Source: a virus (lineage: Duplodnaviria; Caudoviricetes). From it: a stretch of DNA of 26,126 nt. The notes below the pieces were generated by a model, which saw only the letters and a list, made by a program, of their open reading frames with translations, made no database searches and was not told the origin of the DNA. The stretch is from IMG/VR virus record IMGVR_UViG_3300044513_002231, positions 1 to 26,126 of that record. One strand, written 5' to 3'. The translations under genes and the position numbers were made by a program. This document shows, in pieces, positions 17,935-26,126 of the stretch. Position 1 is the first letter of the stretch; every line of letters begins with the position of its first letter.

Positions 17935-18006
17935 ATTAGAGCCGAGGAAGGTGCCCCCAGAGATGGTTGCGGTATACCCCCCTTCTATTCGGATGTAGAG
18001 TTCAAT
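17935..18006 (+). ncRNA. Candidate cis-regulatory structured RNA in the lysozyme 5' UTR
   Basis: Nested stems GAGC/GTTC, CGA/TCG, GGAAGG/CCTTCT, TGCC/GGTA and CCA-GAGA-TGG; GC-rich within AT-rich surroundings. Confidence 0.55.
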
Positions 18007-18014
18007 ACGTATTA

Positions 18015-18626
18015 GTGCATTTAAAAAAAATACTTTCAGTGGCAACAATTTCGTCACTTACTTTAGGTTGTACATCAACCCATGCAGAAATGATGACTGG
18101 ACCAGCAATTCCTATAGTAGGAAAAGTTAATCCAGAAAAAATTGTTAAAATTGAAGTAGAAGAACCAACTTGGAAATGTCCAACATGCAATAAAAATGAA
18201 CAGTATGTTCTTGCACAACTCCAAGAGAAAACTATGATTTTTGATCGCAATGCTCTTGCTACAATCTTGGGTAATATCAAAGCAGAATCTGGTTTTCGAC
18301 CCAATGTTTGTGAAGGAGGGGCAATTGTTCCATATCACCGATGCCTTCGGGGTGGATACGGTTTAATTCAGTGGACTTCTATTGGTCGTTATAATGGACT
18401 AGGAAAGTTTGCTAAACGTTATGGTTGTGATCCTAGTACGCTTGAATGTCAAACACGTTACATGATTAACGAACCCATCTTCCAAAAGTATCTTCCAGAA
18501 TTTGAAGGAAGAGGACAACCTGTTCACCAATACATGGTAGGTGCATATTACTGGTTGGGATGGGGTATTAAAGGAAACCGTGAGCATTATGCTTACCAAT
18601 ATACTAAAAAATTAATCTATTCATGA
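18015..18626 (+). CDS. Phage tail lysozyme-like muramidase (Phage_lysozyme2-like) with signal/lipoprotein peptide
   Basis: ATILGNIKAESGF and GGYGLIQWT motifs. GTG at 18015 yields the signal peptide HLKKILSVATISSLTLGC. Confidence 0.82.
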   Translation: MHLKKILSVATISSLTLGCTSTHAEMMTGPAIPIVGKVNPEKIVKIEVEEPTWKCPTCNKNEQYVLAQLQEKTMIFDRNALATILGNIKAESGFRPNVCEGGAIVPYHRCLRGGYGLIQWTSIGRYNGLGKFAKRYGCDPSTLECQTRYMINEPIFQKYLPEFEGRGQPVHQYMVGAYYWLGWGIKGNREHYAYQYTKKLIYS

Positions 18627-19183
18627 CTGAAACCACTGATTTTTGCAGAACTAAATGTTGCAATATTAAAGGATATGATGGATCCTGCTGTACAGTAGAG
18701 GATCGAAACTGGATTATGGGAGCAATCCCAGATCACATGGAAGTATTGCAACGTATCAGAGAACTTAATCCTGGAGTTGAAATTACTTGGGATGACTGTT
18801 TTATGACTTATGAGGAAGGAAGTAATCTGTTTCCTGATAAACCAACTTGGACAAACCCAAATAATTATCCTTGTATGAGGATTAACATGAACTCTCGCAG
18901 GAGAGGATGTGTTTTTTATAATGATTTATTGGGATTTTGTCAGATTTATTCTGCAAGATCGGTAACATGTTCCAAGTATCGGTGTGAATTCCTTGTAGAA
19001 CATCTTTCCGAACAAGAAAGAGTTGCAAAAGGATTAGAACTTCTAAAAGAAAAAGAAATAGAAGAAGGAACTTTTGTAGAGAAATCTAAAAAAACTAATG
19101 ATCAAAAAATGCAGTCATCTCCAATATATGAATCTGCACCACCTTTAGAACCAGTGATGGAAGAAACCAAATCGCAAGACTAG
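18623..19183 (+). CDS. YkgJ-like (CxxCxxCC) cysteine-cluster protein
   Basis: CRTKCC..GSCC...CVFY...CQIYSARSVTCSKYRC. Confidence 0.75.
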   Translation: MTETTDFCRTKCCNIKGYDGSCCTVEDRNWIMGAIPDHMEVLQRIRELNPGVEITWDDCFMTYEEGSNLFPDKPTWTNPNNYPCMRINMNSRRRGCVFYNDLLGFCQIYSARSVTCSKYRCEFLVEHLSEQERVAKGLELLKEKEIEEGTFVEKSKKTNDQKMQSSPIYESAPPLEPVMEETKSQD

Positions 19184-19187
19184 AACA

Positions 19188-19216
19188 TTGACAATCTATC
19201 CAGTTTCTGATATGAT
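19188..19216 (+). promoter_or_regulatory. Sigma70-type promoter for tRNA-Arg
   Basis: TTGACA-N17-TATGAT with TG extension, 8 nt before the tRNA. Confidence 0.8.
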
Positions 19217-19224
19217 TGTCTCAT

Positions 19225-19298
<74 letters not shown>

Positions 19299-19333
19299 TT
19301 TAGTGATATATATAACACACTTAATTTTTTTAT

Positions 19334-20140
19334 ATGCGTCAAAATAGATGGTCTATAGTGCCTGGAATACAGGCATTTTGCAGAGGTGATTTTGTATATC
19401 TTGCTATACCTAAAAATGGTCTTTGCACCCATACTGAGTTCTTTCAAAGAAAGGGATGGAAACCAAAGCATATTTGGGACCTTGCGATGGAGTGTAATAC
19501 CAATCGTGTATTTATAGGTCACATCCGAAAACCAATTAATAGATATATCAAAGGAATTACTCAATCATTAAAAAACGACGAAAAAATTACAGTCTTTATG
19601 AAAAAGATGGAAAGGGATCCATCTTTTCTCAGATATGTTTTAACCAGTGTGAACGATGATCATACATCACCATTCACGGATATGTTTCCACCAACCATAT
19701 CTCCATATCAGGTCAATTGGATTCCTATGGATCATCCTAAATGGGATTCTAATTTTCTCCTAAATCAATTATTCAGAGAATTTAATCTTCCTTATGTAAT
19801 TGAGAAAAAAGATATTGTTCATAAATCTGATGAAAAACCATTAGAACTTCAAAAGTACATTAGGGAAAAAATGTGCTTCCCTAATGGTGATATTAGACCT
19901 GGATGGGGTGCGTTTGAAAGAACAATGTTAGGGCAAGATCAACTTGTATACAATCATGTTATGCAACAATATAAGGTTAGGGAGCGTTTCTATGAAGATA
20001 TTTTTGTAAAAGAATTTCCAGTATTTACTCCGAAAGATGGATTCTGGTATCCACCAGAAAAAAATGATCAAGATGGTAATCCCGAACCTAAGTTCAATTA
20101 TAGAGTTGATGATAGACCAAGTGTGCTTAAAGCATTGTAA
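19334..20140 (+). CDS. Sulfotransferase-family-like protein (paralog 1)
   Basis: YLAIPKNG (5'-PSB-like), IRKPINRY (3'-PB-like) and DDHT. Confidence 0.6.
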   Translation: MRQNRWSIVPGIQAFCRGDFVYLAIPKNGLCTHTEFFQRKGWKPKHIWDLAMECNTNRVFIGHIRKPINRYIKGITQSLKNDEKITVFMKKMERDPSFLRYVLTSVNDDHTSPFTDMFPPTISPYQVNWIPMDHPKWDSNFLLNQLFREFNLPYVIEKKDIVHKSDEKPLELQKYIREKMCFPNGDIRPGWGAFERTMLGQDQLVYNHVMQQYKVRERFYEDIFVKEFPVFTPKDGFWYPPEKNDQDGNPEPKFNYRVDDRPSVLKAL

Positions 20141-20188
20141 TATGGTATAATCAATTTTCTTAAAATATTTTATTTTGCTAATAAAAAA

Positions 20189-21118
20189 ATGCATCTGTAC
20201 AGTCTAAAAAATCTACAAAACGAAATTCAAGCATACCGACAAGGTAAGTTTGTTTATATTGGTATTCCCAAAAATGCTCTTGTTTCTCATGTAAATATCT
20301 TCAGAGATGCTGGTTGGGAAGGTATTACATGGAGTGATTTATTTGAGGAAGCACCTGCTGAGGAATGGTCTTTCTTTTCACACATTCAGAATCCACACAC
20401 TCGCCACACTAAAGGTGTTGCTGAGTATATGTTTAGACTTTGGGATTGGAGAGAAAAAGTTAATGATAATAGGCAGCATCCTGACATTATTGACGAATAT
20501 TTGTATGAATGGATGAGTGATGAGCGTAATGGACAAGCAGTTTCTTTAATGGTTCAATCAGTCTTTGACCAACACACTATACCTATTACAACTCTTCTCA
20601 GAGATGCTGGAATTGATCCTTGGAAAGTTCATTGGATTCCTATGGACCATCCAACTTATAATACAGAATCCCTTACAAATAATTATCTTTCTAGTAAAAA
20701 GATTCCTCTCAGAGTTTCTATTGATCAAAGGAGACATGTTGCAAACGATGCAAGGAGAAAGTGTTATGAAATTATTAATAACATGAAGCAATATTCTCTT
20801 GTTCAATCGCCAACTCCTTTTGGACAAGGACTACATTATGAAAGACACTTTGTTACAGCAGTTATGCGTGAAGATATCAATCTTTATGTTCAGGCAATGT
20901 CTAATTACGACGTTGATGTTTATCAATTCGAAGATCCTGAAAAGGAAATAAAACAAGCGGCACTTTCTAAGAGAATTTGTGAGGCATTTGTTTTTAAAAG
21001 TCTAGGAATTCCTCCAGAAGAACAACAGAAGCAACATGAGGAAAAGGAAATGCAGATGGAAAGTGAATTGGAAGAATTAGAATCTGAACAACCAACAAAC
21101 AATACTTCTGTGTTCTAG
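20189..21118 (+). CDS. Sulfotransferase-family-like protein (paralog 2)
   Basis: YIGIPKNA, IQNPHTRH and DQHT; shares WIPMDHP with paralog 1. Confidence 0.55.
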   Translation: MHLYSLKNLQNEIQAYRQGKFVYIGIPKNALVSHVNIFRDAGWEGITWSDLFEEAPAEEWSFFSHIQNPHTRHTKGVAEYMFRLWDWREKVNDNRQHPDIIDEYLYEWMSDERNGQAVSLMVQSVFDQHTIPITTLLRDAGIDPWKVHWIPMDHPTYNTESLTNNYLSSKKIPLRVSIDQRRHVANDARRKCYEIINNMKQYSLVQSPTPFGQGLHYERHFVTAVMREDINLYVQAMSNYDVDVYQFEDPEKEIKQAALSKRICEAFVFKSLGIPPEEQQKQHEEKEMQMESELEELESEQPTNNTSVF

Positions 21119-21147
21119 TTGACAGATCCTTCATTTTATTCTATAAT
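21119..21147 (+). promoter_or_regulatory. Consensus sigma70 promoter
   Basis: Perfect TTGACA-N17-TATAAT. Confidence 0.88.
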
Positions 21148-21153
21148 ATTCTT

Positions 21154-21197
21154 GTCCGTGTGAAGGCAGTGCGTTGGGGGTTTACCCCCACCACAAT
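21154..21197 (+). ncRNA. Candidate small RNA / tRNA leader with a Yfr1-complementary motif
   Basis: GTGTGAAGGCAGT followed by the hairpin TGGGGG-TTTA-CCCCCA, between the promoter and tRNA-Gly. Confidence 0.45.
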
Positions 21198-21269
21198 GCG
21201 GAGTTAGTTCAGCGGTAGAACGCTATCCTTCCAAGTTAGATGTCGTCGGTTCGATTCCGATACTCCGCT
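21198..21269 (+). tRNA. tRNA-Gly(TCC)
   Basis: Acceptor GCGGAGT/ACTCCGC, loop CTTCCAA, discriminator T. Confidence 0.94.
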
Positions 21270-21304
21270 TCGGGAATCCGAATTCCCGATAGTTGTAAAA
21301 CTTA

Positions 21305-21427
21305 ATAAATAAAAATGTGATGAAAGCCTCAACTACTTGCAAGTAGTCACAAAGTAAACAGAGACTTGTCGAGTCTCTTTCCATCCGCAGGTATATTACT
21401 CTGCGAGAAAATAACGAGGTATCTAAA
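21305..21427 (+). ncRNA. Structured 5' leader RNA, possibly manA RNA motif
   Basis: Stems TGTGA/TCACA, CTACT/AGTAG, AGAGACT/AGTCTCT and CGCAG/CTGCG; long-range GCCTC/GAGGT pairing with the SD. The tRNA-adjacent 5'-UTR position in a cyanophage matches manA RNAs; identity not verified. Confidence 0.55.
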
Positions 21428-21799
21428 ATGATTAAATCCGCATTCGCAGCTCTGGCTGCTGCTCCCCTTTTCGCTGGTGCTGCAATGGCAGGACCCTACG
21501 TGAACGTTGAAGCAAACAGTGGTTTCACTGGCAGTAACTACAGCGGCACCAACATCGACACCCATGTCGGTTACGAAGGTGCTCTGGGTGAATCCGCTGG
21601 TTGGTATGTCCAAGCTGGTGCTACCATCGTTGCTCCCGACGGCGGCGCTTCTGACACCGTTCCCTCTGGTAAGGCTGGTCTTTCCGCTGGTCTGACCGAG
21701 CAACTGTCTGCTTACGGCGAAGTTTCCTTCCTGGGTAGCGGCGTTGCTGGTGTTGACCGTTCTTACGGCACCAAGGCAGGTCTGAAGTTCACCTTCTGA
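21428..21799 (+). CDS. Small outer-membrane beta-barrel (porin-like) protein
   Basis: Signal peptide ending AMA, alternating amphipathic strands, C-terminal beta-signal KAGLKFTF; SD GAGG. Confidence 0.8.
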   Translation: MIKSAFAALAAAPLFAGAAMAGPYVNVEANSGFTGSNYSGTNIDTHVGYEGALGESAGWYVQAGATIVAPDGGASDTVPSGKAGLSAGLTEQLSAYGEVSFLGSGVAGVDRSYGTKAGLKFTF

Positions 21800-21824
21800 T
21801 TCACTGAATCCGTGCTATAATACT

Positions 21825-21846
21825 GGGGACTTCGGTCCCCTTTTTT
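21825..21846 (+). terminator. Intrinsic terminator
   Basis: GGGGAC-TTCG-GTCCCC followed by T6. Confidence 0.92.
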
Positions 21847-22029
21847 ATGTTTAAAAAAATTCTCTCTCATCCAGTTACGCACTTCAACCTTGTAGTTGTT
21901 GGACTTTTAATTTTGATTCAGGGTATGCACATGCACGCTCACTACACTATGGAAGTTGATGTTGAGTCATATGTACGTAATTTTTGTAAAAAAAATGTAG
22001 AGAAGTGTGAAAGGATTATTGGCAAATGA
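21847..22029 (+). CDS. Small membrane-anchored hypothetical protein
   Basis: Hydrophobic FNLVVVGLLILI; overlaps the next start. Confidence 0.65.
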   Translation: MFKKILSHPVTHFNLVVVGLLILIQGMHMHAHYTMEVDVESYVRNFCKKNVEKCERIIGK

Positions 22030-22250
22030 CTGTACCATTTTTTATTGAAGAACCTATTACTTGGAAGAAAGTAAAAGTTCCTTATGATATCGTCCAGTAT
22101 TGTGATTCTTTCACTGTTGATTCGGATCGTGAAGATCTCCGTTACATTGATTGTGTTTGGATGCATATGGGTTATTATGGTGTACCAACAGATGTTATGA
22201 GGGCAGTGAGAGAAGAATGGAATCCAAAAGTTGTACCAGTATTTGAATGA
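22026..22250 (+). CDS. Hypothetical phage protein
   Basis: ATGA overlaps on both sides. Confidence 0.7.
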   Translation: MTVPFFIEEPITWKKVKVPYDIVQYCDSFTVDSDREDLRYIDCVWMHMGYYGVPTDVMRAVREEWNPKVVPVFE

Positions 22251-22648
22251 GAAAACTTCGTCTAAAACAACGTTGGTCTAATAGACCTCGTACCCGTAAA
22301 GAGTGGGTAAAACTATATGTTTCATATTTGAAGCGTATTCCAGAGAGGCAATACTGGCCCATTTTTATTATTCTGTCTCTGTATTTTGTCGTTCCTATGA
22401 GCGAGATTACAGTGACCTTAGCAGCAATTTTATTCTTTAAGTTTGAGAATAAGATTCGTCCACTGATTGCTAAAGCAGTAACTCCTCTGCCAGATTGGTT
22501 GCGTTATGGTGGTAGTATTATTTTCTTTCTTGTGATGATTGATGACACTCTTTTTTACTTTGCATTAATTGCTCTTGCATTCTGGAGCAGCAAGCAAGTG
22601 CAGAAAGAGAATAAATATGAAAATATCGAAGAATCGCATGAAGATTAA
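22247..22648 (+). CDS. Hypothetical membrane protein
   Basis: Basic N-terminus followed by several hydrophobic segments. Confidence 0.7.
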   Translation: MRKLRLKQRWSNRPRTRKEWVKLYVSYLKRIPERQYWPIFIILSLYFVVPMSEITVTLAAILFFKFENKIRPLIAKAVTPLPDWLRYGGSIIFFLVMIDDTLFYFALIALAFWSSKQVQKENKYENIEESHED

Positions 22649-22814
22649 TCTATGGTATTGTACACATATGAATTTGTGGCGTTGGACTCTTGTTGATGAT
22701 CGTCTTCCTATTGTGAGGCAAGAATCTGGTCAAAGAGAAGATCTAAAACTTGCCATGGAAGATGTTGCCAATACCGTAGAGTATATGCTACAATGTAGAA
22801 ATCTGGGAGATTAA
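22638..22814 (+). CDS. Small hypothetical protein (stop within tRNA-Val)
   Basis: ATG at 22638 (MKINLWYC...WRWTL...QESG). Confidence 0.65.
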   Translation: MKINLWYCTHMNLWRWTLVDDRLPIVRQESGQREDLKLAMEDVANTVEYMLQCRNLGD

Positions 22815-22876
22815 CTCAGCGGTAGAGTGGCTGCCTTACAAGCAGTAAGTCATTGGTTCGAATCCGATATTTCCCA
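22805..22876 (+). tRNA. tRNA-Val(TAC)
   Basis: Acceptor GGGAGAT/ATTTCCC; anticodon arm GCTGC-CTTACAA-GCAGT. Confidence 0.93.
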
Positions 22877-22893
22877 TTTGTTTCAATAACAAA

Positions 22894-23313
22894 ATGATTC
22901 TACAAGCATTTAAAAATATTAAAAAAGTTTTTACGTCACATAGTAAAAAGGAAAGCACTCTTAAAGTGGAGCGTGCTGTCGATAATGAGATGGTAAAACG
23001 TGAACAAATAAATACTCCAACTTATATTGGTGTTCCTGCTCTATCATATTTGGTAGAAGATCCTTGGTTTCCTCCTCCTGTTTTTTCGGAAAAACAATTG
23101 AGTGTGAAGGAAGCACACGAACAAGCAGTTGTAGATCAACAGATTCTTGATGAATCTGAGAGTAAAGAATCTGCTGATATCCATCAAAAACTTTATGAGA
23201 TGGCAACTCAAAACTGGACTACCGTTGCAGAGACGCAAGGTGGTTCTGAGAATTTTCAAGAGGGTCCTGGTGAATGGCATTCTGGTACTGGATATAATCA
23301 ATTTCGTAACTGA
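22894..23313 (+). CDS. Hypothetical protein
   Basis: 139-aa ORF after the tRNA. Confidence 0.7.
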   Translation: MILQAFKNIKKVFTSHSKKESTLKVERAVDNEMVKREQINTPTYIGVPALSYLVEDPWFPPPVFSEKQLSVKEAHEQAVVDQQILDESESKESADIHQKLYEMATQNWTTVAETQGGSENFQEGPGEWHSGTGYNQFRN

Positions 23314-23379
23314 TAAATAAAATGGCAAATAACCAAGAACTTCGCCAAGAACTTGAAAGTATTAAAGGTATAATTAGAG

Positions 23380-23631
23380 ATGTTAGTAATCAGGTGCAAG
23401 AACTGTGGGAAGCAGTTAGAGTCTCATCCTACAAAGATGAGAAGTTGCGGATGTGAGAATTTTACGAGTATCCGTGGGATAAACATATCAGGGAAGGATC
23501 TTTCGCTAATTGAAATCATAAACAATGATGTTGATAAGGTAAGATCTAGTATTTTTAGTAATGATGAACTTGCTTTTCAAGAAGCAAGGAGAAAAAGAAA
23601 AGTTAGAAAATTAGATTTTGATGTGAGATAA
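23380..23631 (+). CDS. Small Zn-ribbon-like protein
   Basis: CKNC...SCGC. Confidence 0.75.
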   Translation: MLVIRCKNCGKQLESHPTKMRSCGCENFTSIRGINISGKDLSLIEIINNDVDKVRSSIFSNDELAFQEARRKRKVRKLDFDVR

Positions 23632-23819
23632 TGCTTACATTTTGGATTCACTTGAGAGCATTCTTTTTTACGGTTGTGTTAAACTGTGCCCAACCTGTTA
23701 ACTGGAAGTATTGCTATCGTGTTGATCAGTGGTTAATTCCAGATCTTATAGAAGGTTATGAGATCTGGACAGAAAAAAAACATCCTTATCAAATTGAGAA
23801 GGATTACTTGGAAAGGTGA
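23631..23819 (+). CDS. Small hypothetical protein (stop within tRNA-Ser)
   Basis: TAATG overlap with the upstream gene. Confidence 0.65.
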   Translation: MLTFWIHLRAFFFTVVLNCAQPVNWKYCYRVDQWLIPDLIEGYEIWTEKKHPYQIEKDYLER

Positions 23820-23893
23820 CCGAGTGGTTTAAGGTAGCAGTCTTGAAAACTGCCGTGTTAGTAGCACCGTGGGTTCGAATCCCACCCTTTCCG
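23810..23893 (+). tRNA. tRNA-Ser(TGA)
   Basis: Acceptor GGAAAGG/CCTTTCC, arm GCAGT-CTTGAAA-ACTGC, long variable arm, discriminator G. Confidence 0.95.
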
Positions 23894-23990
23894 TTTAATA
23901 ATTTCTTAAACACTTTGTTTGTTTCAACATATAGTTGACATTCTTTAGATACTCACTAGCATAACTAGTAGTATTCCAAAGATAGAACCT

Positions 23991-24140
23991 ATGGATCAGC
24001 ACACCTATAATAACTGGGTGAAGATCAAGGAGACCTTCGAACAGTCTGGCAACACAGACAACATGTTCTACAAGAGAGCAGTGGCAATTGTAAAAACAAG
24101 AAAAGATCCACTGGCAAAATTTCTGGGTGATAAAGAATGA
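23991..24140 (+). CDS. 49-aa hypothetical protein (absent from ORF track)
   Basis: MDQHTYNNWVKIKETFEQSGNTDNMFYKRAVAIVKTRKDPLAKFLGDKE; ATGA-coupled to the next gene; TTGACA at 23935. Confidence 0.7.
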   Translation: MDQHTYNNWVKIKETFEQSGNTDNMFYKRAVAIVKTRKDPLAKFLGDKE

Positions 24141-24364
24141 ATTTTAAATTTAAAAATTGGGGAGATGGAATGGAACCCCCAGAAAGACTAACCGAAGAAC
24201 GAGTTCAGGAGATGATCGATGCAGCAATACGACGACACAACCGTAATGCTTCTATCATTAGCATGTGCGTTGGTTGGGTGGTTCTTGCTTTATTTGCTGA
24301 GGGACTTCTAAGACTTGTTGGAGTTATTCCACCTTTATTGCCATGGCTCAATATCACATTGTAG
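24137..24364 (+). CDS. Small membrane protein
   Basis: EMIDAAIRRHNRNAS followed by a transmembrane segment. Confidence 0.75.
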   Translation: MNFKFKNWGDGMEPPERLTEERVQEMIDAAIRRHNRNASIISMCVGWVVLALFAEGLLRLVGVIPPLLPWLNITL

Positions 24365-24525
24365 AATGGGTGGGTGTTGTTGCCCTTTTTTTATTTGGCA
24401 TGACAATGATTTGCCAAGGACATTTTATTTTCCATGGTAAATATGGATATAAGCACTCTGAAAGAGAACAAAAAAAATCTGAAGAAGTGCGAAAAACTAT
24501 AGAAGAATTACTTAAAGGTAAATAG
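24343..24525 (+). CDS. Small membrane protein
   Basis: Transmembrane segment WVGVVALFLFGMTMI. Confidence 0.65.
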   Translation: MAQYHIVEWVGVVALFLFGMTMICQGHFIFHGKYGYKHSEREQKKSEEVRKTIEELLKGK

Positions 24526-24531
24526 TGAATT

Positions 24532-24726
24532 ATGAATAACGATTGGCGGTATAGTGAAGAAAGAATGATTCTTAGACAAGAATCTTTCTTGAAGTTAAAG
24601 CATCATTTTAAATTGCAAGAAGTTCAATTTCTATATGAGTTTTGTCATGATTGGGTAAGTCAAGGAAACAAGACTACATATAATATAGAAGATGAATTTC
24701 TTCAGTTTTTAGAATTAAACAAATAA
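24532..24726 (+). CDS. Hypothetical phage protein
   Basis: DWRYSEERM...YEFCHDWVSQG. Confidence 0.7.
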   Translation: MNNDWRYSEERMILRQESFLKLKHHFKLQEVQFLYEFCHDWVSQGNKTTYNIEDEFLQFLELNK

Positions 24727-24729
24727 CAC

Positions 24730-25392
24730 ATGATAAAATTTATTGCTGGTATGTTGGCAGCAGTTTCTATTGCAACTCCTGTTCTTGCTGACTCTAAAAT
24801 CACCAAGGGTTACTACACTATGGATGCATTGGGGTGTATGATTCTCCGTGAATGCATCAAAGATGTACAAAGAGTCGAAGATATCTCTACTATTGCTGAC
24901 GCTCATCCCAATAGTGATTATAGTATTATTGCTGACGAGTTCGGTAGAATGCTCGTTGCCCTTGATAAGGTCGGAGTTAAGGTGTTTCTAGCAGATGAAA
25001 AATATTTTCCTGTTGGACACCGTGGTGTATATCATACGATTAGTAATAACTTTTTTCTGAATAAAACGTACATGCGTCGCCCTAGTGTCTTAATGACGGT
25101 GATGCGTCATGAAGGATGGCACGCTGCCCAAGACTGCATGGCAGGTTCTATCAAGAACTCTTTGATTGCTATCATCAGACCAGAAGAAGATATTCCCATG
25201 CTCTATCGTGAGATGGCGGAAAGATCTTATCCTGGAAGCGCAGTTCCATGGGAAGCAGAGGCAGGGTGGGCAGGTAGAACTGAGAAAGTTACTATGGAAG
25301 CACTTGAGTCTTGTGCTCGTGGAACTATGTGGACTGATTATGAACCAACTCCTCTTACCAAAAAGTGGTTGCAAGAAAACGGTTATCTGTGA
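24730..25392 (+). CDS. Exported protein with HExxH zinc-metallopeptidase motif
   Basis: Signal peptide ending VLA; MRHEGWHAAQ with downstream EAEA. Confidence 0.75.
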   Translation: MIKFIAGMLAAVSIATPVLADSKITKGYYTMDALGCMILRECIKDVQRVEDISTIADAHPNSDYSIIADEFGRMLVALDKVGVKVFLADEKYFPVGHRGVYHTISNNFFLNKTYMRRPSVLMTVMRHEGWHAAQDCMAGSIKNSLIAIIRPEEDIPMLYREMAERSYPGSAVPWEAEAGWAGRTEKVTMEALESCARGTMWTDYEPTPLTKKWLQENGYL

Positions 25393-25398
25393 TATAAT
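25369..25398 (+). promoter_or_regulatory. Sigma70-type promoter for tRNA-Pro
   Basis: TTGCAA-N18-TATAAT with TG extension. Confidence 0.55.
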
Positions 25399-25430
25399 AT
25401 CTTTGTTGATGGGAAAACCCCTCAACTTAA

Positions 25431-25504
25431 CGGAGTGTAGCTCAGCTTGGTAGAGCGCCGTCTTTGGGAGGCGGATGCCGAAGGTTCGAATCCTTTCACT
25501 CCGA
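25431..25504 (+). tRNA. tRNA-Pro(TGG)
   Basis: Acceptor CGGAGTG/CACTCCG; anticodon arm CCGTC-TTTGGGA-GGCGG. Confidence 0.95.
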
Positions 25505-25527
25505 TTGCCAGTTTCCGATCTGGCATC

Positions 25528-25556
25528 TTGACTATATACAGTCAAACATCTATAAT
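25528..25556 (+). promoter_or_regulatory. Sigma70-type promoter
   Basis: TTGACT-N17-TATAAT; the -35 is one arm of the inverted repeat TTGACT-N6-AGTCAA. Confidence 0.75.
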
Positions 25557-25579
25557 AATCGGGTAAACCACATACAACA

Positions 25580-25795
25580 ATGGCAATTACTGAAAAATTT
25601 AAGAAAGACATCAGCACACTTCGTGCTGCTGCCAATGGCGAAATTTTCCTTGACGTAAAAAATCCAAAACTTTTCAAAAAGGTGCGCCGCTTCTATGAAA
25701 ACGAGGGAGTGGTGTTTTCAGGAGATCCTCTAGATGACTATGAAATGTTAATGGAATATCTTTTCCAAGATCTTGAAACCGTTGAGGTTGCATGA
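25580..25795 (+). CDS. Hypothetical phage protein
   Basis: 71 aa directly after the promoter. Confidence 0.75.
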   Translation: MAITEKFKKDISTLRAAANGEIFLDVKNPKLFKKVRRFYENEGVVFSGDPLDDYEMLMEYLFQDLETVEVA

Positions 25796-26058
25796 AAGTT
25801 GTAAAAAAACCAACCGTTCTTATGGAGCGGTTTCCTTATCGTTATATTCAGGTTGGTAAGTTGGAAATCAACGGAATGCCTGATTGCCGCATTCAGAAGG
25901 TAGATTCCTATACTGGACGCTACCGCGATATGTATCTCTGCGACAATGAGATGCAACTTATGACTGCTATGGAAGACCACGATTATACTTGTTGGTTGGA
26001 TCCTGATAATGTCCCTGCTTATGTCAAGGACGATGAAGAAGACATGGAGAGTCTTTAA
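25792..26058 (+). CDS. Hypothetical phage protein
   Basis: ATGA overlap; PDCRIQK...YLCDNEMQ. Confidence 0.78.
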   Translation: MKVVKKPTVLMERFPYRYIQVGKLEINGMPDCRIQKVDSYTGRYRDMYLCDNEMQLMTAMEDHDYTCWLDPDNVPAYVKDDEEDMESL

Positions 26059-26120
26059 AAAACCTGGTGGAGTCAATCCCCTTATGCCCATGATGGAGAC
26101 ATGTAAAAAACCCTGGTCGG
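26044..26120 (+). repeat. Imperfect direct repeat (about 48-49 nt period), truncated by window end
   Basis: ATGGAGA-N5-TAAAAAACCTGGT and ATGGAGA-N4-TAAAAAACCCTGGT. Confidence 0.55.
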
Positions 26121-26126
26121 GATGGT

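Follow-up and report, generated by a model that had tools for sequence, protein, structure and literature searches.

Several described RNAs come close to the element reported here. The Yfr2 or Cyano-1 RNAs (RF01701; accessible parts of PMC6778093 and PMC2662882) are likewise short RNAs of cyanobacterial context with an unpaired, G/U-rich 5′ stretch that can pair with the motif of Yfr1. The undecamer of Yfr1 is used as printed in PMC2190773, the accessible part of which places Yfr1 in nearly all cyanobacteria, and the promoter motif of Yfr2 is the GntR-bound CGRE1 (PMC6778093, in part). AgvB and AsxR, the anti-sRNAs of EHEC prophages, are also very short phage RNAs with a 5′ head and a 3′ hairpin that act in trans on a host non-coding RNA (PMC4104026, accessible part). 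The wcaG RNA motif (RF01761), proposed as a cis-regulatory riboswitch candidate in the accessible part of PMC2864571, is found in the same phages as our element. For the tRNA-LysT/tRNA-ArgU heterodimer of E. coli, sequestration of a tRNA by RNA–RNA pairing has in vitro and in vivo support (bioRxiv 10.64898/2026.09.02.748885, accessible part). Cyanomyophage tRNA genes, according to the accessible parts of PMC3152331 and PMC11726456, shift decoding from host-preferred G/C-ending codons to codons preferred by the phage, a shift that the present locus would share. Known phage reshaping of the tRNA pool adds tRNAs or uses protein nucleases, whereas the antisense RNA considered here is predicted to subtract a tRNA. 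Cleavage of tRNA-Leu(CAG) in E. coli after T-even infection belongs to this background.

The window, by which we mean the whole stretch of 26,126 nucleotides that was analysed, derives from a T4-like cyanomyophage and covers 26 kb of its genome. Alongside helicase and primase genes and nrdAB it has nine tRNA genes and an outer-membrane beta-barrel gene of cyanophages, and its NrdB is nearest to that of Synechococcus phage S-SKS1 (89.6%). The features relevant to the locus are the following.

21119–21147, plus strand: sigma70-type promoter TTGACA-17-TATAAT, matching at 12/12 positions, directly after the stop codon of the ORF at 20189–21118
21154–21197, plus strand: predicted 44-nt small RNA, the 5′ leader of pre-tRNA-Gly, placed from the promoter and tRNA positions, with a spacing that is kept in relatives
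21155–21176, plus strand: head antisense to tRNA-Val(CAC), covering the 3′ strand of the D stem, the anticodon stem and the loop, with 19 Watson–Crick pairs, 2 G–U pairs and 1 mismatch
21158–21164, plus strand: exposed 7 nt, the exact complement of the 7-nt anticodon loop, a candidate seed and the best-conserved part of the family
21167, plus strand: C in place of the usual A of relatives, the sole mismatch to the tRNA, seen in related contigs too
21175–21190, plus strand: 6-bp G–C-rich hairpin of five G–C pairs and one U–A pair, drifting in sequence among relatives with the pairing kept
21198–21269, plus strand: phage tRNA-Gly(TCC), from tRNA gene prediction
21270–21289, plus strand: 8-bp trailer hairpin without a U-tract behind tRNA-Gly, fold z −2.8
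22804–22877, plus strand: phage tRNA-Val(TAC), a candidate replacement isoacceptor, with a predicted leader binding of +1.1 kcal/mol, meaning no binding
26065–26075, plus strand: wcaG-array-type head against the CCA end of host tRNA-Ala(GGC), 10/11 plus one G–U
26114–26124, plus strand: wcaG-array-type head against the CCA end of host tRNA-Pro(CGG), 11/11

Two further regions of the window are recorded here as observations in their own right. At 18623–21118 three ORFs of 186, 268 and 309 aa lie around a tRNA-Arg and belong to no PHROG or Pfam family. The 5′ region of the beta-barrel gene (21290–21430) has three hairpins (z −3.2), is without an Rfam match and is covered by many metatranscriptome contigs; similar hairpins precede the beta-barrel gene of S-RIM44 and S-H9-2.

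The promoter at 21119–21147 scores highest among 20 candidate sites in 18000–26126, and its activity is predicted. We infer that the leader starts at G21154, 7 nt past the −10 box, which gives its length of 44 nt, and likewise that RNase P releases it. The promoter, the leader of about 44 nt, the 6-bp hairpin and the tRNA-Gly described in an earlier, sequence-only reading were all borne out. That reading also took 21158–21170, where the motif GTGTGAAGGCAGT is found in the window sequence, to be single-stranded. Fold prediction agrees for 21158–21164, where alone the unpaired probability reaches 0.82–0.99, but predicts most of 21165–21171 to be paired. The C at position 21167 is unlikely to be a sequencing error because related contigs share it. 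By itself the fold of the leader is unremarkable (z −1.08), and it is its conservation, not its fold or its resemblance to a Yfr1 partner, that lifts the element above chance. Rfam returned nothing besides tRNA for the leader, either at the gathering score over the whole window or at E up to 10 over 20900–22000.

Small fractions of the window stretch are contained in 18 RNA runs. RNA-library contigs from three studies, originating from related phages, span the leader into tRNA-Gly; they extend to 16–34 nt upstream of the predicted start and for that reason display neither a start nor a free leader. The conserved arrangement supports the view that the leader is a promoter-driven, hairpin-capped cyanophage small RNA, presumably released by RNase P, and we judge from the sequence that 21154–21197 is a real, uncatalogued phage small-RNA gene.

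The family to which this gene belongs is widespread in cyanomyophages. Among 108 records found by BLAST with the leader, 71 are Synechococcus phages (mostly S-RIM2 isolates among those listed) and none is named as a Prochlorococcus phage. The exact 17-base family pattern occurs in IMG/VR at no fewer than 119 listed loci, which represent 102 distinct contexts, and at an estimated 270 or so in total. In the usual layout a −10 box or a T4 late box a few bases upstream, or the 3′ end of a tRNA, is followed by the head, a G–C hairpin and then a U-tract or a tRNA. In these contexts the unit is often free-standing with its own promoter and terminator, and given the several layouts the tRNA leader is therefore one of several routes to the same short RNA. 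The model phage Syn9 has an exact copy. A near copy at 23102 of the window lies inside the ORF at 22894–23313, where neither a promoter nor a hairpin was noted, and was rejected as a second unit. Phage S-SRM01 has an abiF RNA (L001 635–671) in its tRNA cluster, about 550 nt upstream of its anti-Val leader.

Circularity was avoided by a second scan of promoter-to-tRNA-Gly leaders in which the head was left free. The head was present in 46 of 84 distinct leaders, in 39 at 11/14 or more core positions and in seven with indels recognized by eye, and absent from the other 38. In a second type of context it was exact in 12 of 13 distinct cases, the thirteenth having one insertion. Eight stem variants of the hairpin were found among 41 leaders, all preserving the pairing, in a sequence-by-sequence count that takes the best partner strand and is biased toward pairing. 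Variation in the head is concentrated opposite the anticodon stem, and T replaces A at one head position in 13 of 39 leaders. A second class of promoter-proximal tRNA-Gly leader was also seen, with 22 distinct members (L500, L511, L522, L528, L531, L553 and others) that have a long hairpin with an ACC-repeating loop. This loop resembles tRNA CCA tails or the anti-Shine–Dalgarno sequence, and a strong host-tRNA complement was absent in the eight that were tested.

The partner that best accounts for the conserved head is host tRNA-Val(CAC). The window head is complementary to 18 of 19 bases of the picocyanobacterial tRNA-Val(CAC) anticodon arm, compared with at most 15 in 300 shuffles of the leader over 42 host tRNAs, and no other site in the window outside tRNA genes matches this arm so well. 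Its duplex energy is −37.0 kcal/mol with tRNA-Val(CAC), −27.2 with the next tRNA and −19.9 to −24.1 with Yfr1, in calculations that leave out tRNA tertiary structure and modifications. For all 41 leaders tRNA-Val(CAC) ranks first among the 42 host tRNAs, and in 40 of the 41 it beats the best of three Yfr1 RNAs. All conserved head bases pair with it bulge-free, while the nine phage tRNAs and host Val(TAC) are predicted to be spared. These matches were computed against picocyanobacterial tRNAs, from which those of the window's own host may differ. In Synechococcus MIT S9507, Synechococcus UW140 and Cyanobium Aljojuca the sole tRNA-Val(CAC) gene is matched exactly, in antisense, by the family 17-mer; no such tRNA match was obtained in Prochlorococcus MIT 9314 or Synechocystis salina. 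At two of the at least 119 listed viral loci the pattern is the reverse strand of a tRNA-Val(CAC) gene.

The 30-base target arm is identical in 88 of 121 genomes of the picocyanobacterial family, comprising 87 of 92 genomes of at least 2.1 Mb and one of 29 of at most 2.0 Mb. Because the host arm is invariant, covariation between host and phage cannot be demonstrated from it. One of 17 phylum-level matches (G375:C154:4307–4331) carries a Val(CAC) stem variant to which the heads of the 13 leaders with T for A mentioned above would be fully complementary, a possible case of host–phage covariation.

The sequence-only reading had instead made host Yfr1 the main target, through an 11-nt pairing with two single-nucleotide bulges. 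All 11 pairs are feasible and the site occurs once in the window, at the flagged position. However, when the window was shuffled 200 times, 75 of the shuffles also contained a complement to Yfr1 with at most two single-base bulges, which puts the match at chance level. For the window leader the predicted energy of binding to Yfr1 is −8.8 to −11.1 kcal/mol, and the best values average −12.4 over the family; five real Yfr2 RNAs come out nearby, at −11 to −16, and a sixth model hit at −1.9. A role as a sponge of Yfr1 (or Yfr10), making the RNA a phage counterpart of Yfr2, would also fit a reporter assay in which Yfr2 counteracts Yfr1 (PMC6778093, accessible part). In addition, the one base at which the window copy deviates from the complement of the tRNA is among those that would be bulged against Yfr1, and an outer-membrane beta-barrel gene is located downstream of the tRNA here. 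Regulation of that gene in cis by way of Yfr1 was considered and rejected, since the head is 270 nt upstream with the tRNA in between and relatives precede unrelated genes or terminators.

If the RNA served to bind Yfr1, one would expect the bulged bases to vary or to be lost, but they are conserved. A search that left both positions open gave 96 distinct hits, a figure that includes background, with A at the first position in 93 and at the second in 90. Among the 39 leaders of the free scan, all have A at the first position; of the pair of A's at the second, the leading one is conserved in 38 and the following one in 26. A bulge-free anti-Yfr1 form behind a −10 box was found at 14 loci (10 distinct), none of which has the hairpin followed by a U-tract or tRNA as judged by eye, and a one-bulge form at two loci, neither with the unit layout by the same inspection; the pattern keeping both positions occurs at about 230. 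The bases ahead of the core are TCC in 31 of 40 leaders, which pair with tRNA-Val(CAC) but not with Yfr1; the Yfr1 of Synechococcus would require GG. The RF01701 model also gave no window hit at the gathering score and none at E up to 10 in 20900–22000, while host copies were found in three of three genomes, two of them over the cut-off. Host copies of Yfr2 have a conserved central loop on a long stem (PMC2662882, accessible part), whereas the leader is much shorter with a variable 4-nt loop, and host Yfr2 is predicted not to bind tRNA-Val(CAC) (−0.7 to −6.4, against about −21 for the leader). The comparison with AgvB leads in the same direction. AgvB is a prophage RNA that mimics the mRNA target of an Hfq-bound sRNA (PMC4104026, in the part available), whereas the present RNA belongs to a T4-like myovirus and has a tRNA as its best predicted partner; its conservation does not fit a host sRNA seed but follows the tRNA complement including the would-be bulges. 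Considering also the Prochlorococcus phages discussed below and the units that mirror other parts of tRNA-Val(CAC), which Yfr1 leaves unexplained, a main function as Yfr1 sponge seems very improbable. Yfr1 is a possible secondary binding partner according to the energies, and the sequence-only reading most likely had the right object and the wrong partner.

A search for the complement of the arm's remaining half gave 84 loci in 63 distinct contexts, which on reading were sorted into 43 wcaG arrays, five free-standing units, eight antisense tRNA genes or attachment-like fragments and seven unrelated cases. The free-standing units (L659, L666, L691, L710, L738) mirror the acceptor strand of tRNA-Val(CAC), then its variable loop and anticodon with the T arm skipped, and end in a terminator. 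Five named phages lacking the stand-alone unit have the complement of this other half instead. Yfr1 cannot explain these layouts because their overlap with the flagged head is limited to about seven bases. In four viral contigs (L661, L676, L692, L693) 3′ fragments of picocyanobacterial tRNA-Val(CAC) resemble attachment sites, and such fragments are a possible origin of the antisense heads.

The same observations raise the question whether the head is an inverted remnant of tRNA-Val(CAC), a relic of an attachment site that is kept for a role at the DNA level, for protein binding or as an aid in tRNA-Gly processing. The eight contexts with antisense tRNA-Val genes or attachment-like fragments would provide its source, and the occurrence of the head in about half of the promoter-proximal tRNA-Gly leaders is compatible with a processing aid. 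Yet the head is always antisense and placed just behind a promoter or a tRNA end, at many unrelated loci that mostly have a terminator without a downstream tRNA. It is fixed while the hairpin drifts with its pairing kept, and three layouts mirror different parts of one tRNA. We therefore regard a relic as improbable.

The reading that we favor, with a probability of roughly 60%, is that the unit is a copy of a conserved cyanomyophage sRNA gene whose 5′ head is antisense to the tRNA-Val(CAC) anticodon arm, and that the RNA pairs with the host tRNA and removes it from translation. Early in infection host RNA polymerase would make the leader together with tRNA-Gly, after which RNase P would free the leader. 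Other family members would need no processing, having their own terminator or a position after a tRNA 3′ end. The seven exposed bases could dock on the anticodon loop, from where pairing would spread through the anticodon stem into the D stem. Bound tRNA-Val(CAC) would be neither charged nor decoding, or would be degraded. Host mRNAs rich in GUG would then slow down, while the A/U-rich phage would use GUU and GUA with its own tRNA-Val(UAC). The tertiary structure and the modifications of mature tRNA-Val(CAC) may block strand invasion. The mismatch in the window copy, the lack of the unit in four of nine Synechococcus phages and the 46 of 406 phage Val codons that are still GUG also count against a tRNA target, and so does the family variation opposite the anticodon stem, a place where pairing with Yfr1 would tolerate it too. 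As for regulation in cis by a T-box riboswitch, with its specifier loop and antiterminator, no hit to the Rfam model was obtained and many relatives end in their own terminator.

Complementarity alone does not separate inhibition from protection. The partner could be the same tRNA-Val(CAC), its precursor or its fragments, with the RNA shielding it from a host anticodon nuclease, acting as a sponge for fragments or guiding a protein. All complementarity evidence fits such outcomes equally. Anti-phage cleavage of tRNAs is known at anticodons and at CCA tails (PMC3014915 and PMC12851939, accessible parts), and the phage RNAs cover exactly these two sites. Against protection, a fully paired anticodon cannot decode, so that protection would silence the tRNA too, and the covered tRNAs read the codons that the phage most avoids, which a protective function would not choose. 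We consider these other outcomes rather unlikely, and removal of tRNA-Val(CAC) from translation remains the preferred reading.

The distribution over hosts was compared in phages picked without regard to the unit. It is carried by five of nine Synechococcus phages (Syn9, S-SKS1, S-SM2, ACG-2014d, S-RIM8) and absent in S-PM2, S-CAM9, ACG-2014f and S-ShM2. None was found in nine Prochlorococcus phages and one Pelagibacter phage, which gave two one-mismatch and two relaxed-pattern hits without the layout. These samples are small and phylogenetically non-independent, and a further set of 11 Synechococcus phage records is biased, having been selected for similarity. Prochlorococcus MIT 9314 lacks tRNA-Val(CAC) and has Yfr1, the undecamer of which was found in all five genomes examined. 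The accessible part of PMC3152331 counts Val(CAC) among the variably present tRNAs. The unit is also absent in two phages isolated on Prochlorococcus MIT9303. This is a low-light strain, which we assume may carry tRNA-Val(CAC). The host-range argument is limited to Val, Leu and Pro because Ala(GGC) and Arg(CCG) are present in Prochlorococcus too. In a separate comparison of phage records (L425–L449), 14 of the 15 from Synechococcus had wcaG (E 0.001 or better) and one had manA, while of the nine from Prochlorococcus all had manA and none had wcaG. The manA motif was ruled out as the parent of the unit, having no evident sequence kinship with it and marking Prochlorococcus phages instead.

The flagged leader differs from wcaG in having neither an RF01761 match nor the two hairpin–UGG modules. 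Array heads of the wcaG type are located separately, at 26065–26124, within the start of a wcaG-type array (26060–26126) that is interrupted by the contig end. In five phages a wcaG array with an anti-Val(CAC) stretch occupies the tRNA-Gly leader position. In the wcaG arrays of 14 phages, which are related and do not give independent counts, 157 TGG sites were compared with host tRNA 3′ ends extended by CCA. An 11/11 match was obtained at 13 of them and at none of 927 sites in the flanks; at 10/11 or better the numbers are 41 and 13. The tRNAs matched repeatedly are Leu(CAG/GAG), Pro(CGG), Ala(GGC) and Arg(CCG), where the Ala(GGC) and Arg(CCG) matches rest on 10/11 and one Arg head fits Arg(ACG) equally well. 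The unit likely belongs to a broader anti-tRNA repertoire of which the wcaG-array heads are also part.

Codon bias was computed after the targets had been predicted, with a simple ORF caller supplying 50 ORFs from one host and 25 from the window. The codons most favored by host over phage are, in order, CCG, CTG, GCC, CGG, GGC and GTG, and the predicted targets read those ranked 1–4 and 6. No element was seen against Gly(GCC), which reads the codon ranked fifth. GUG makes up 52% of Val codons in the host ORFs and 11% in those of the window. A tentative extension, to which we give somewhat less than even odds, is that T4-like Synechococcus phages use RNAs alone to knock down several members of the host tRNA pool in parallel. 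The unit would act on the Val(CAC) anticodon arm and the wcaG arrays on the CCA ends of Leu(CAG/GAG), Pro(CGG), Ala(GGC) and Arg(CCG), causing a codon-selective host shut-off that spares the phage tRNAs.

In the literature accessible to the search, no report was found of this RNA or of a phage RNA antisense to a host tRNA. In the tRNA-LysT/tRNA-ArgU heterodimer, as far as its report is accessible, both partners are host tRNAs and no dedicated viral antisense gene is involved. If the predicted tRNA partner is right, the unit would fit none of the kinds of phage small RNA found in that literature. Should the pairing be real, a viral RNA would act directly on a host tRNA, a target class not found there for phage small RNAs. 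How A/T-rich cyanomyophages achieve good translation in G/C-rich Synechococcus is a long-standing question, to which such an RNA would add a subtractive aspect, and the wcaG motif, an orphan since 2010, would gain a testable partner. The exact copy in Syn9 makes the proposal testable in a laboratory phage–host pair of a globally important primary producer.
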